Below, one piece after another: positions 58,826 through 64,000 of a stretch of 64,000 nt of DNA. Each line of letters opens with the position of its first letter. Position 1 is the stretch's first letter. Source of the stretch: Lysobacterales bacterium (GTDB taxonomy: Bacteria; Pseudomonadota; Gammaproteobacteria; Xanthomonadales; Xanthomonadaceae). The notes under the pieces were generated by a model that did no database searches, was not told the origin of the DNA, and was given only the letters and a program-made list of their open reading frames with translations. The stretch is taken from the NCBI GenBank assembly GCA_016718605.1, contig JADKCY010000001.1:58156-122155 (forward strand). Reading direction: 5' to 3'. The translations under genes and the position numbers were made by a program.

Positions 58826-59809
58826 TCACTTGGGCGTATCTGGCGCCCGTTCAGCGAGCGTCGCCGCGAGAACGCCGTCTGACTTGGCCCAATCGCGATC
58901 CTGACTCAACAGGTATGTTTCGCCTTCACGCAAGATGAACTGCTTGAACGCTTCTGCAGCCGGAGAAAGCGTGCGCGGCAGCAGGCGAACCACATTCCAT
59001 GTTCGCATCAATGGGCTGCCCTCGACGGGTAGCACGTGCAACAAACCGGATTTCAGTTCAAGCCACAGCGTGTGCAGCGAAAGAAAACTCAGCCCCATTC
59101 CCGCCATCACAGCCTGTTTGATCGACTCGTTGCTGGGCATTTCCATCAGCACGCTGATTGGTGCGTTGTAGTCTGCGAAAAAACTCTCCATCGCCGCCCG
59201 TGTGCCGGAGGCCTCCTCGCGAACGATGAAGCCATGGCCGCCGAGATCTGCCGCCCGAATCGTGGTCTGCATCAACAACGGATGGCCAGGCGGGGCAACA
59301 AATACATGTGGATGGCCAGCAAAGGCTTCCGCGCGTGTCGCCAGTCCCTTCGGCGCACGGCCCATGATCGCGAGATCGATCTCGTTACTCTGCAGCAGCA
59401 TCACCAGATGCTCTCGATTGTTTCCGACCCGCAGGCGCACTTCAATGCCGGGGTGCAATTGCCGAAAACGCGCGAGCAGGTGCGGCACGAAGTACTTCGC
59501 TGTACTGACCATGCCAACGGTGAGCGAGCCACTCTCCAAACGTTGCAGTTTGGCCAGCGCGTCTTCGGCCTCGCGCAACGTAGCGACGATGCGTTTGGCG
59601 TAGACGAGAAAGTACTCGCCACCGGTGGTCAGGCTCAGTTGCTTGCCACGGCGGTCAAACAAACGCACTCCAACGGCGCCTTCGAGTTCCTTCATTTGCA
59701 ACGTCACCGCGGGTGGCGTCAGGTGCAGGCGTTCGGCAGCCCGCGCGAAATTAAGGCTGCGGGCAGCTTCGATGAAGGTATGAATCTGACGCAAGGTGGC
59801 ATTCTTCAT
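58826..59809 (-). CDS. cbbR: LysR-family regulator CbbR
   Basis: TLRQIHTF...NFARAAERLHLTPPAVTLQMK; VSTAKYFVP; REEASGTR; SNESIKQAVMAGMG; divergent from cbbL. Confidence 0.92.
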   Translation of the reverse strand: MKNATLRQIHTFIEAARSLNFARAAERLHLTPPAVTLQMKELEGAVGVRLFDRRGKQLSLTTGGEYFLVYAKRIVATLREAEDALAKLQRLESGSLTVGMVSTAKYFVPHLLARFRQLHPGIEVRLRVGNNREHLVMLLQSNEIDLAIMGRAPKGLATRAEAFAGHPHVFVAPPGHPLLMQTTIRAADLGGHGFIVREEASGTRAAMESFFADYNAPISVLMEMPSNESIKQAVMAGMGLSFLSLHTLWLELKSGLLHVLPVEGSPLMRTWNVVRLLPRTLSPAAEAFKQFILREGETYLLSQDRDWAKSDGVLAATLAERAPDTPK

Positions 59810-59874
59810 TAAGAATCCCTAAATCCTGAATGATGCAATCGTCAATTTACCTTATCCAATGCAGCAACTACAGT
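59810..59874 (+). promoter_or_regulatory. cbb promoter with CbbR boxes
   Basis: TAA-N7-TAA (59810-59822) and TCA-N7-TTA (59842-59854); -35 TTTACC, 17 nt spacer, -10 TACAGT. Confidence 0.7.
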
Positions 59875-59917
59875 CTGGCCACCCCGGTACAGGTCCGGGA
59901 CACCAGAGAGAGCCGTC

Positions 59918-61399
59918 ATGAGTTCACAAGACACGACCGCCGGTGCCGATACCGCCATCACCGACAAAAAAAAGCGCTATAGCGCAGGCGTGCTGAAGTA
60001 CCGCCAGATGGGCTATTGGGACGCCGACTACGTCCCGAAAGAGACCGACACCCTGTGCCTGTTTCGCATCACGCCGCAAGATGGGGTGGATCCCATCGAG
60101 GCCGCTGCCGCGGTCGCCGGAGAATCAAGCACCGCGACGTGGACGGTCGTCTGGACCGATCGCCTGACGGCTTGCGACAGCTATCGCGCCAAGGCATACA
60201 AGGTCGAGCCGGTCCCAAACACTCCCGGGCAGTACTTTTGCTGGGTCGCCTACGACATCATCCTGTTTGAAGAAGGCTCGATCGCCAATATCACGGCGAG
60301 CCTCATCGGAAACGTCTTTAGCTTCAAGCCCTTGAAAGCCGCGCGCCTGGAAGACATCCGCATGCCGGTGGCGTTGGTGAAAACCTTCAAGGGTCCGCCC
60401 TGCGGCTTGGTCACCGAGCGCGAGCGCCTCGACAAGTTTGGCCGCCCCTTGCTGGGCGCCACCACCAAGCCGAAGTTGGGACTGTCGGGCCGCAACTATG
60501 GCCGCGTGATTTACGAAGGATTGAAGGGCGGTCTGGACTTCATGAAGGACGACGAGAACATCAACTCGCAACCCTTCATGCACTGGCGTGACCGCTTTCT
60601 CTACGTCATGGATGGCGTCAACAAAGCCAGTGCCGCGACCGGCGAGGTGAAAGGCTCCTACCTGAACGTCACCGGCGCGACCATGGAAGATATCTATGAG
60701 CGTGCAGAATTCGCTAAGGAACTGGGCTCGGTCGTGATCATGCTGGATCTGATCATCGGATGGAGCGCGATCCAAAGCATGGCTAACTGGGCACGCAAGA
60801 ACGACATGATCGTGCACATGCATCGCGCTGGTCACGGCACTTACACACGTCAGAAGAACCACGGCGTCAGCTTCCGCGTGATGGCGAAATGGCTGCGTCT
60901 GGCCGGTGTCGATCATCTGCATACCGGCACCGCCGTCGGCAAACTCGAAGGCGACCCGATGACGGTGCAGGGCTACTACAACGTGTGTCGTGACAGCTAC
61001 ACCAAACAGGATCTGCCCCGCGGACTATTCTTCGATCAGGATTGGTGCGATACCAAAAAGGTCATGCCAGTAGCCTCTGGCGGCATCCATGCCGGACAAA
61101 TGCACCAACTCATCGATCTGTTTGGTGATGATGTCATCCTGCAATTCGGTGGCGGCACGATCGGCCATCCGGCAGGCATTCAAGCGGGTGCTGTCGCCAA
61201 CCGCGTCGCTTTGGAGGCGATGGTCAAAGCGCGCAACGAAGGCAAGGACATCAAGAACGAAGGGCCGGAGATTCTCCGCAAGGCCGCGCAGTTCTGCACT
61301 CCGCTGAAACAGGCGCTGGATACCTGGGGTGACATCAGCTTCAACTACGCCAGCACCGACACCAGTGACTACGCCGTCACGCCGGCCACTTCGAACTGA
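59918..61399 (+). CDS. cbbL: RuBisCO large subunit, red-type form IC
   Basis: [42 protein letters not shown]; C-terminal extension typical of red-type enzymes. Confidence 0.98.
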
Positions 61400-61416
61400 T
61401 CGAGGAGTAAACGACC

Positions 61417-61854
61417 ATGATGACCAACCCGACCGGACGTCTGACCCAGGGCCAGTTCTCCTTCTTGCCCGATCTGACCGACGAAGAAATCGCGCTGCAG
61501 ATTCAGTATGGCTTGAGCAAAGGCTATGCCTGGAGCGTCGAGTACACCGACGATCCCCACCCACGCAACACGTATTGGGAAATGTATGGCATGCCGATGT
61601 TCGATCTTCAGGATCCAGCCGGAGTGTTGATGGAAGTCAACAACTGCCGCAAGACCTTTCCAAACCACTACATTCGTTTGATGGCCTTCGACAGCACCCG
61701 CAATGTCGAGTCGATTGCGATGAGCTTCATCGTCAATCGCCCGGCTAGGGAGCCTGGCTTTGCCTTGGTTCGACAGGAAGTGAATGGTCGCAGCATGCGC
61801 TACACCATCCATAGCTATGCGACGGACAAGGCAGAGTCCGAGCGCTACGACTGA
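61417..61854 (+). CDS. cbbS: RuBisCO small subunit, red-type
   Basis: [28 protein letters not shown]-terminal beta-hairpin [18 protein letters not shown]. Confidence 0.97.
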
Positions 61855-61881
61855 CGCTCTCATCGCATCGCTTGCCAATCG

Positions 61882-61913: not shown

Positions 61914-61938
61914 TTCATCATCGCAAGGAGTCGCTCCC

Positions 61939-62610
61939 ATGGTTCGCATCGCCCCCAGCATTCTGTCTGCCGACTTTGCCCGTCTGGGTGAGGAAGTGCG
62001 CAATGTAATCGCCGCCGGCGCGGACTGGATTCACTTCGATGTCATGGACAACCACTACGTCCCCAATCTGACCATTGGTCCAGGGGTGGCGCAGGCAATC
62101 AAGCCGCATTGCGTGGATCCACAAGGCAAACCGGTGCCATTGGATGTGCATTTGATGGTGCGGCCAGTCGATGAGCTCGCCCTCGCATTTGCCAAGGCCG
62201 GTGCGGATTACATCAGTTTTCACCCCGATGCCAGCACACATGTGGATCGGACCCTGCAGCTGATCCGTGGCGCTGGCTGCAAAGCAGGACTGGTGTTCAA
62301 CCCGGCCGCATCGATGGATGTTTTGGAATGGGTCATCGACAAGGTCGATCTGATCCTGATCATGAGCGTCAATCCCGGCTTCGGCGGACAGAGTTTCATC
62401 GACAGCGCACTACGCAAGTTGGAACAAGCCCGAACCCTGATCGATGCCAGCGGACGTGACATCCGGCTGGAAGTCGATGGCGGTGTGAAGGTGGACAACT
62501 TCCGTCGAATTGTCGATGCCGGCGCCGATACGCTGGTGGCGGGCAGTGCCATTTTCAGCCAACCTGACTATGCCTCGGTCATCCAAGCGATGCGCGCGCA
62601 ACTCGACTGA
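61939..62610 (+). CDS. rpe: Ribulose-phosphate 3-epimerase (CbbE)
   Basis: [42 protein letters not shown]. Confidence 0.96.
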
Positions 62611-62618
62611 GGTGATCC

Positions 62619-63575
62619 ATGAGCACGCCGATGTACAACATCCCTGGCGCCAATCCCGTGAGCCCGTCAGCGCAAGCGCCTGAACCAAGTGCGCCTGCCT
62701 CGACTGCCAGAACGGTCGCCCAGGTGTTGCAAGAGAGTCGCATCGACGAGGTCCTAGACGAGCTTGAGCGCGACTTGGTGGGCTTGGCGCCAGTTAAACA
62801 GCGCATCCGCGATATCGCTGCCCTGCTAGTGATAGACAAACTCCGAATGAATCTTGGACTGCAGGCCGAAAATCCCAGCCTGCACATGAGTTTCACCGGC
62901 AATCCAGGCACCGGCAAGACCACGGTCGCGATGCGTATGGCCGAGATACTGTTCCGCCTCGGCTATGTACGCAAAGGTCATCTGGTCGCGGTGACGCGGG
63001 ACGATCTGGTCGGGCAGTACATCGGTCATACCGCACCGAAAACCAAGGAAATTCTGAAAAAGGCGATGGGCGGTGTGCTGTTCATTGACGAGGCCTACTA
63101 CCTGTATCGCCCTGACAACGAACGCGATTATGGACAGGAGGCGATCGAAATCCTGCTGCAGGTAATGGAAAACCAGCGCAACGATCTGGTCGTCATTCTC
63201 GCCGGCTACAAAGACCGCATGGACACGTTCTTCCAGTCCAATCCGGGCATGAGCTCGCGGATCGCGCACCACCTTGACTTTCCCGACTACAGCGTCGACG
63301 AATTGGGTCGCATTGCACAGATGATGCTGGCCAAACAGCATTATCGCTTTGATGACGGCGTGGCTGACGTTTTCACCCAGTATCTGAAACGCCGCGTGCA
63401 GATGCCGCATTTCGCCAACGCACGCAGCGTGCGCAACGCGTTGGACCGTGCACGACTGCGCCAGGCCAGTCGATTGTTCGCCGACCGCGAGCGCGAGCTC
63501 ACGGCCGAGGATCTCACCACTCTGACGGCGGCCGACATTCTGGCCAGCCGCGTGTTCCAGGAATCATCTGTCTGA
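62619..63575 (+). CDS. cbbX: Red-type RuBisCO activase CbbX
   Basis: Walker [10 protein letters not shown], pore loop [11 protein letters not shown], Walker [19 protein letters not shown]. Confidence 0.95.
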
Positions 63576-63585
63576 GGAGTCCGTC

Positions 63586-64000
63586 GTGCCGCTCTCGAAG
63601 CTACCTACCCTGACGCAATACCTGATCGATCAGCGTCGCCGCTTTCCGCAGGCCAGTGGCGAGCTCAATGCACTGATTCTCGACGTATCGATTGCCTGCA
63701 AAGCAATTGCCCGCACTGTTGCTTTCGGCTCGCTGGCTGACATCGCAAGCGCGGGCAGCGTCAATGTGCAGGGTGAAGAACAGAAGCCGCTGGATGTTGC
63801 AAGCAACGAGATGCTGATGCGCCAAACCGAGTGGTCGGGCCATCTGGCAGGCATGGCCTCCGAGGAAATGGATTCGCCGTACCAGATTCCGGGCGAATAT
63901 CCGCGTGGCAAGTATCTATTGGTCTTCGATCCGCTAGACGGCTCATCGAATATCGACGTCAACGTCTCGGTCGGCACGATTTTTTCGATTCTTCGTGCGC
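63586..64000 (+). CDS. fbp: Class 1 fructose-1,6-bisphosphatase (CbbF), truncated by window end
   Basis: Not in the ORF track; GTG at 63586 reads [14 protein letters not shown]...[12 protein letters not shown]...MASEE...[22 protein letters not shown]. Confidence 0.93.

Follow-up and report, generated by a model that had tools for sequence, protein, structure and literature searches.

How does a member of the Xanthomonadaceae, a family regarded as heterotrophic, come to encode a full apparatus for CO2 fixation, and what might it use that apparatus for? The question is raised by one end of a 64,000-nt stretch of DNA from a Lysobacterales bacterium (G000:C1:58156-122155, where G000 is the genome carrying the locus; hereafter the window), in which a Calvin-Benson-Bassham (CBB) cycle operon begins and from which it runs on into the adjoining sequence. 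Positions are window coordinates unless contig C1 or C3 is given. We consider this to be a complete red-type operon for form IC ribulose-1,5-bisphosphate carboxylase/oxygenase (RuBisCO) with a Rubrivivax/Sphaerotilaceae-like donor, old and conserved in its present lineage, whose host would be a facultative chemolithoautotroph or mixotroph; we put the probability of this reading as a whole at roughly 0.7. What is read directly from the sequences is the content, integrity and conservation of the genes, their synteny, and their similarity to those of Burkholderiales.

The operon and its RuBisCO

Annotation of the 20 kb around the operon gives the order cbbR <> cbbL-cbbS-rpe-cbbX-fbp-prk-tkt-cbbZ/cbbY fusion-fba. 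These ten tightly packed genes span 10.2 kb, and those from cbbL to fba are co-directional. Neighboring genes overlap or are separated by fewer than 20 nt, the exceptions being the 84 nt between cbbS and rpe and the 40 nt ahead of fba. The features are as follows, with model scores and cut-offs where these apply.

58826..59809, minus strand: cbbR, LysR-type regulator, divergent from cbbL; best NCBIfam match NF045990
59810..59917, no strand: cbbR-cbbL control region, 108 bp; from reading of the sequence
59918..61399, plus strand: cbbL, form IC RuBisCO large subunit, 493 aa; NCBIfam, 767.8 bits (cut-off 438)
61417..61854, plus strand: cbbS, RuBisCO small subunit, 145 aa, long red-type form; PF00101 RuBisCO_small
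61939..62610, plus strand: rpe (cbbE), ribulose-phosphate 3-epimerase; TIGR01163, 295.6 bits (cut-off 212.6)
62619..63575, plus strand: cbbX, red-type RuBisCO activase (AAA+); TIGR02880, 517.6 bits (cut-off 459.25)
63586..64000, running to C1:122817, plus strand: fbp (cbbF), class 1 fructose-1,6-bisphosphatase, 5' part in the window; full 358-aa gene, 511.6 bits (cut-off 349)
C1:122827-123711, past the window end, plus strand: prk, phosphoribulokinase; NF011997, 505.6 bits (cut-off 362)
C1:123711-125726, past the window end, plus strand: tkt, transketolase; TIGR00232, 933.9 bits (cut-off 682)
C1:125723-127243 (L002:9724-11244), past the window end, plus strand: cbbZ-cbbY fusion, 506 aa, haloacid dehalogenase (HAD) protein; NF009695 and 4UAR matches
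C1:127284-128318, past the window end, plus strand: fba, fructose-bisphosphate aldolase; TIGR01521, 612.5 bits (cut-off 496)

A first-pass annotation, made from the window alone, had described cbbR as divergent from intact cbbL, cbbS, rpe, cbbX and fbp. The open reading frames (ORFs) of these six genes lie exactly where it had placed them, and none contains an internal stop. The same annotation had reported the RuBisCO motifs KDDE and GKLEG as intact, and they are found at residues 210 and 341 of CbbL within a full series of conserved motifs (TKPKLG 183, KDDEN 210, HRAGHG 302, HLHTGT 333, GKLEG 341, SGGIH 387 and GGGTIGHP 411). The catalytic residues are all in place, including the carbamylated lysine of KDDE, the lysine of GKLEG, and the metal and phosphate sites. 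Among solved structures, CbbL is matched best by two form IC enzymes, 1BXN from Cupriavidus necator (945 bits) and 5NV3 from Rhodobacter sphaeroides (927 bits), as compared with approximately 800 bits for the red-algal form ID enzyme of Galdieria and approximately 600 bits for green-type enzymes. The gene for the small subunit starts 17 nt after cbbL, so that the two subunit genes are adjacent, as in L8S8 form I enzymes. Judged by sequence, the enzyme is a red-type, proteobacterial form IC RuBisCO, and it is the single RuBisCO in the whole genome.

The matching activase of the first-pass annotation is confirmed. CbbX scores above the curated equivalog cut-off of TIGR02880, has the AAA+ core with Walker A (GNPGTGKT, 94) and Walker B (LFIDEAY, 154) motifs, and adjoins the red-type cbbLS genes. 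It also aligns over its full length with R. sphaeroides CbbX (3SYL, residues 28-314), and matches 3ZUH as well.

The window ends within fbp, and the earlier annotation had named prk, tkt and fba as genes to be sought in the rest of the genome. All three are in the operon itself, with prk just past the window end and tkt and fba farther on. The CBB gene set thus consists of prk, rpe, tkt, fbp and fba in the operon, together with pgk and gap, which are located elsewhere in the genome.

The cbbZ-cbbY fusion joins two phosphatase-like halves. The N-terminal half (residues 8-231) matches the phosphoglycolate phosphatase model NF009695 with 274 bits (cut-off 225). For the C-terminal half the match is to R. 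sphaeroides CbbY (4UAR), a xylulose-1,5-bisphosphate phosphatase. That it is also read as one frame in the genomes of two sister species, G001 and G003, shows that the fusion is not an assembly error. No other enzyme gene of the operon evolves as fast, identity across the sister species being 72-79%, and the fusion apparently occurs in some Sphaerotilaceae loci as well.

The regulator is less readily named by model than the enzymes. Its best NCBIfam match is the CbbR model NF045990, which was built on Rhodobacter-type CbbR, and the score of 289 bits falls below the equivalog cut-off of 450, a shortfall that counts against the assignment. The name cbbR is therefore based on context and on the 56-65% identity to the regulators that adjoin Rubrivivax-type operons. 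The control region between cbbR and cbbL contains two TNA-N7-TNA boxes, at 59810-59822 (TAAGAATCCCTAA) and 59842-59854 (TCAATTTACCTTA), which we take to be CbbR sites on the basis of the LysR/CbbR consensus, and a conserved CTACAGT that is common to Rubrivivax loci. Both boxes occur with equal spacing in G001, G003 and Rubrivivax sp. L029, and the second box is found in nearly all of the Burkholderiales and Rhodanobacter loci examined. These boxes are putative binding sites of CbbR. Promoter and terminator scans of the locus gave nothing better than shuffled sequence.

The host and the contig

The alanyl-tRNA synthetase AlaS encoded in the window shares 92% identity with that of a metagenome-assembled genome (MAG) labeled 'Lysobacteraceae bacterium' and 81% with that of Aquimonas voraii. 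Identities are lower for Pseudomarimonas, Pseudoxanthomonas and Luteimonas (74-76%), for Rhodanobacter MAGs (70%) and for Rubrivivax gelatinosus (59%). Because the AlaS of a genus-mate (G010) is 100% identical to that of A. voraii, we assign the genome to GTDB Aquimonas (Xanthomonadaceae/Lysobacteraceae). The Xanthomonadales-like host that the first-pass annotation had recognized is thus placed in a genus known from a heterotroph (A. voraii), and its backbone, judged by AlaS, lies outside any known autotrophic lineage. The genome is 5.3 Mb in size.

A CbbL that looks betaproteobacterial, in an assembly that has long-read-type homopolymer indels elsewhere, might mean that assembly or binning had produced the cbb block as an artefact, by attaching a fragment of betaproteobacterial DNA to a Xanthomonadaceae contig; a chimeric join near 58.2-58.9 kb had been raised as a concern at the outset. 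Six assemblies, independent of one another and differing in source (two NCBI MAGs, two from ENA, and one each from JGI and Logan), are nevertheless collinear with window positions 57918-63399 at 99.1-99.8% identity, with no more than one gap (five of the six are gapless), and all cross the suspected breakpoint through a histidine/aromatic ammonia-lyase (HAL) homologue, a DsrE-family gene, cbbR and cbbL. In G001 and G003 the operon lies between the same Xanthomonadaceae flanks, with HAL-DsrE on one side and tsaC-WS/DGAT (wax ester synthase/diacylglycerol acyltransferase) on the other. The contig is therefore not chimeric. Furthermore, Xanthomonadaceae genes stand on both sides of the operon on a 292-kb contig, and its GC content and GC content at third codon positions (GC3) are host-like, unlike those of the donors with 66-70% GC. 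Collinearity, flanks and composition together refute the artefact. An identical CbbL is also recorded on 22 contigs of other assemblies.

The genes that border the operon are listed here.

52228-54297, minus strand: fatty acyl-CoA reductase-like short-chain dehydrogenase/reductase (SDR), 689 aa; NF005539, 996 bits
56342-58276, minus strand: HAL homologue, 644 aa
58341..58829, minus strand: DsrE-family gene with signal peptide, 162-aa ORF (gene calls in other assemblies give 148 aa); PF02635 DsrE, as assigned to the identical gene there
G000:C1:129693-131234, minus strand: WS/DGAT wax-ester synthase

The DsrE-family gene lies immediately downstream of cbbR on the same strand. It has no NCBIfam match, and is kept at the same position in G001 (82% identity) and G003 (70%). 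The HAL homologue gives two separate matches to the HAL model, implying an insertion of approximately 100 aa, and within the genus is found only in G000, G001, G002 and G003. Wax-ester storage genes thus border the cbb region, with the acyl-CoA reductase-like gene on one side and WS/DGAT on the other; in two Aquimonas species that lack cbb genes (G007 and G009), the two are approximately 5 kb apart.

Distribution and origin of the operon

Form I RuBisCO is rare among the relatives of this genome. It is present in two of the ten other Aquimonas species (G001 and G003), and in seven of the 400 family species that were sampled evenly. The seven RuBisCO-bearing species fall into three unrelated kinds, with 98-99%, 73-77% and 54-57% identity to the CbbL described here. 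Outside the genus, the nearest named CbbL proteins are those of Rubrivivax, Sphaerotilus, Ideonella and Aquabacterium (94-97% identity), followed by those of Rhodanobacter MAGs (91-93%) and Steroidobacteraceae (85-91%). For CbbS, CbbX, Fbp and Prk, identity to the counterparts in the closest Burkholderiales loci is 73-89% (72-89% for cbbS across Burkholderiales cbbS genes), as compared with 59% for the housekeeping protein AlaS.

The resemblance extends to the organization of the locus. The operon of Rubrivivax gelatinosus and other Sphaerotilaceae has the order cbbR <> cbbL-cbbS-rpe-cbbX-fbp-prk-tkt(-fba), a CbbL 91-97% identical to the present one, other proteins with identities of 73-89%, and a homologous control region with a TNA-N7-TNA box and CTACAGT. 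The position of rpe between cbbS and cbbX is common, being found in Rubrivivax (including R. gelatinosus), Ideonella, Sphaerotilus, and Rhodanobacter and Steroidobacteraceae MAGs; the gene order is therefore not unusual, as Burkholderiales loci share it. The two operons differ in their hosts, in that the present one is gammaproteobacterial (Xanthomonadaceae), in GC3 (0.63-0.76 here, 0.93-0.97 there), and in the cbbZ-cbbY fusion, which is present in only some Burkholderiales loci. Since the sequence (CbbL 94-97%), the control region and the order of the genes are all of the Rubrivivax/Sphaerotilaceae type, horizontal acquisition is likely. Transfer from Burkholderiales is the parsimonious reading, and probably the right one; its direction and donor are what we infer from these comparisons.

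In a tree of concatenated CbbL, CbbS, CbbX, Fbp and Prk, the three Aquimonas genomes group together with a Shimodaira-Hasegawa approximate likelihood ratio (SH-aLRT) support of 100, and their clade is nested in clades dominated by Burkholderiales (support 96, 100 and 100). The only outgroup, G033, is long-branched and represents the other red-type Xanthomonadaceae lineage. Several results weigh against the transfer. An approximately unbiased (AU) test does not reject a tree in which the Aquimonas clade and G033 are joined (delta lnL 68, p = 0.18), so that with a single long-branched outgroup the nesting and the direction of transfer are not formally proven. The operon borders lack any integrase, tRNA or repeat. 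There is also no clean empty site in the Aquimonas species that lack cbb genes, where the flanking synteny is too rearranged for borders to be defined; in one of them (G002), HAL lies beside WS/DGAT with the order reversed.

The unrejected AU topology and the lack of mobility scars, along with an entirely host-like composition, are what might be expected if the operon had been inherited vertically from an autotrophic Xanthomonadales/Xanthomonadaceae ancestor and lost nearly everywhere else, with Burkholderiales as the recipients. Very many losses would be needed, however, because RuBisCO is absent from 393 of the 400 family species and from eight of the ten other Aquimonas species. CbbL is also closer to Sphaerotilaceae (94-97%) than to other red-type Xanthomonadaceae (73-77%), which is the opposite of the AlaS pattern, and several supported branches nest the Aquimonas clade within Burkholderiales. 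We regard vertical descent from such an ancestor as very improbable, and prefer transfer from Burkholderiales.

Rhodanobacter may have obtained its operon independently. The Rhodanobacter MAG L056 has an identical gene order and a CbbL with 91% identity, and the tree places the Rhodanobacter MAG beside a Rubrivivax MAG, apart from the Aquimonas clade, which suggests separate acquisitions. Rubrivivax-type cbb operons were also encountered in MAGs labeled Synechococcus sp. UW140, Candidatus Fonsibacter lacus, Bordetella parapertussis and Acidobacteriota (loci L107, L103, L070 and L071). These four most likely reflect binning contamination or mislabeled bins.

Following its probable acquisition, the operon has taken on the character of its host. 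The GC3 of the cbb genes lies inside the genome range (mean 0.693, sd 0.054), as opposed to the much higher values of donor-like loci given above, and this adaptation of codon composition indicates that the acquisition is old. Between G000 and the sister species, CbbL has 98-99% identity at the protein level and 87% at the DNA level, and dS (synonymous substitutions per site) is 0.45-1.1. The ratio of nonsynonymous to synonymous rates (dN/dS) is 0.01-0.05 for the enzyme genes; by gene, the comparisons with the sister species give 0.012-0.022 for cbbL, 0.07-0.08 for cbbR and 0.09-0.10 for the cbbZ/Y fusion. The cbb block is vertically inherited within the subclade and kept intact by strong purifying selection. 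The cbb-bearing subclade also has a lower GC content (60.4% genome-wide in G000, approximately 62% in the G001 and G003 loci) than other Aquimonas loci (65-69%).

Energy sources and mode of life

The first-pass annotation had suggested looking for an energy module in the rest of the genome, and two kinds are present: two uptake hydrogenases with an H2 sensor, and a sox cluster. Contig C3 carries a membrane-bound uptake hydrogenase (MBH) of the HoxKGZ type (small, large and cytochrome b subunits), an H2 sensor of the HoxBC/HoxJ/HoxA type (sensor hydrogenase pair, histidine kinase and sigma-54 regulator), and a second, Isp-type hydrogenase with hypF. This hydrogenase island spans G000:C3:1189899-1228428, and narG is found approximately 25 kb further on (C3:1251633-1255334). 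The large subunit of the uptake hydrogenase scores 960 bits, below the cut-off of 1101 of the E. coli Hya equivalog, and passes the Pfam and subfamily models. The genes of a Knallgas lithoautotroph that were sought here, for an uptake [NiFe] hydrogenase with its cytochrome b anchor, an H2 sensor and maturation (hypF), are all present. HoxG is closest to that of Rhodocyclales (Denitromonas, Azoarcus and Zoogloea; 86-88% identity), which hints at a second, separate betaproteobacterial source.

The sox cluster lies approximately 3-11 kb upstream of the window and consists of genes for a rhodanese, soxC, soxD, a c-type cytochrome, soxY, soxZ, soxA, soxX and soxB. SoxC, SoxY, SoxZ, SoxA and SoxX each score above their own cut-offs. 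The soxB gene, at G000:C1:53798-55765 (2.4-4.4 kb upstream of window position 1), falls into three frames in this assembly, and is intact (569 aa) in a short-read contig of 99.7% identity. Comparison with short-read contigs that are 99.6-99.7% identical reveals nine homopolymer-length indels in 7.3 kb, and all of the differences are changes in run length (CC/CCC, GGGG/GGGGGGG and so on). The frame breaks are peculiar to this assembly, and soxB is not a pseudogene. Other apparent frameshifts in the genome need caution, since this is a long-read assembly with residual homopolymer errors.

Other energy sources and nitrogen fixation were also considered. No photosynthetic reaction center (Photo_RC) was found in the genome, nor was any form I CO dehydrogenase (CoxL) above cut-off or any nifH. 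Phototrophy, carboxydotrophy and diazotrophy are rejected on these grounds, and in the lack of a reaction center energy must come from a chemical source and not from light.

In Cupriavidus necator H16, the cbb operon (cbbLSXYEFPTZGKA) is accompanied by an MBH and a regulatory hydrogenase. The present genome resembles it in having a form IC RuBisCO (1BXN being the best structural match), CbbX, a divergent CbbR and most of the accessory genes, and likewise a HoxKGZ-like hydrogenase with a HoxBC/HoxJ/HoxA-like H2 sensor. It differs in that rpe precedes cbbX, cbbZ and cbbY are fused, gap and pgk are outside the operon, and there is only one, chromosomal, copy. In its working, the system is like the cbb regulons of both R. 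gelatinosus and C. necator.

Combining these elements, we propose the following scheme. The operon, together with its regulator and control region, would have entered the ancestor of the subclade (G000, G001 and G003) from a Burkholderiales donor, and would then have acquired the codon composition of the host and been kept by purifying selection. Bound at the two TNA-N7-TNA boxes, CbbR would turn the operon on. RuBisCO would fix CO2, CbbX would release inhibitory sugar phosphates from it, and the CbbZ/CbbY fusion would clear phosphoglycolate and xylulose-1,5-bisphosphate, while the products of prk, rpe, tkt, fbp and fba, with those of the housekeeping genes pgk and gap, would regenerate ribulose-1,5-bisphosphate. 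Reducing power and ATP could be drawn from H2, through the HoxKGZ-type MBH under control of the H2 sensor and the Isp-type hydrogenase, and from thiosulfate, through soxCDYZAXB, with O2 or nitrate (narG) as the electron acceptor. On this gene content, the organism is probably a facultative chemolithoautotroph. The first-pass annotation had proposed an autotrophic or mixotrophic host; the genomic potential is borne out by the full cbb set and the energy modules, whereas expression of the operon and autotrophic growth are what we infer from them.

Two observations bear on this lifestyle from the other side. In a 2026 survey of JCM (Japan Collection of Microorganisms) strains, only 22 of the 97 strains with form IC RuBisCO were documented CO2 fixers (PMC12999727), so that the genes alone do not prove autotrophy. 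The other concerns the distribution of the energy modules: cbb and soxB co-occur within the genus in G000, G001 and G003, but among these hydrogenases are found in G000 and G003 only, and none was found in the 94%-complete genome of G001, which has both cbb and sox.

The operon might then be functional without supporting autotrophic growth, acting as an electron sink or in the re-assimilation of CO2 during heterotrophic or lithoheterotrophic growth, with H2 and thiosulfate as merely supplementary sources of energy. Such roles have been described for many form IC carriers, the majority of cultured carriers in the survey being without documented CO2 fixation, and the large genome, the heterotrophic genus, and the neighboring genes for wax-ester storage and acyl-CoA metabolism, which are typical of heterotrophs, would be in keeping with them. 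Against this stands what the operon contains, namely all of the cycle-specific and regeneration genes, an activase and damage-control phosphatases. The co-occurrence of sox in the subclade, and of an H2-sensor-controlled uptake hydrogenase in two of its three species, further gives a gene set that is that of classical Knallgas and thiosulfate autotrophs. We therefore consider use of the operon without autotrophic growth unlikely, if still a contender, and favor facultative chemolithoautotrophy.

Form IC genes are already known in the order. The JCM survey lists the Lysobacterales Rudaea and Metallibacterium as carriers of form IC RuBisCO and untested potential autotrophs (PMC12999727), and Rhodanobacter MAGs carry such genes as well. 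These organisms resemble the present one in belonging to the same order, having the same form of RuBisCO and being, likewise, only potential autotrophs; they differ in that their family is the Rhodanobacteraceae. A literature search turned up nothing specific on autotrophy in Aquimonas, Xanthomonadaceae or Lysobacteraceae.

It is conceivable that G000, G001 and G003 are the first true H2- and thiosulfate-driven chemolithoautotrophs in the Xanthomonadaceae/Lysobacteraceae proper, assembled from separate betaproteobacterial transfers (the cbb operon Sphaerotilaceae-like, the uptake hydrogenase Rhodocyclales-like) that were followed by a drop in genome GC from approximately 65-69% to approximately 60%. 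We hold this larger proposal tentatively, at slightly under even odds.

The finding is uncommon in the family, yet the type of gene cluster is well known, and no new enzyme, pathway or mechanism is involved. What it offers is a clean example of a whole cbb operon, with regulator and control region included, that would have moved between proteobacterial classes and then been fully domesticated. It also adds the Aquimonas lineage, from a family regarded as heterotrophic, to the likely facultative chemolithoautotrophs. Because this lineage recurs in many public metagenome assemblies (the 22 contigs with an identical CbbL), it may add to dark CO2 fixation in its habitats.

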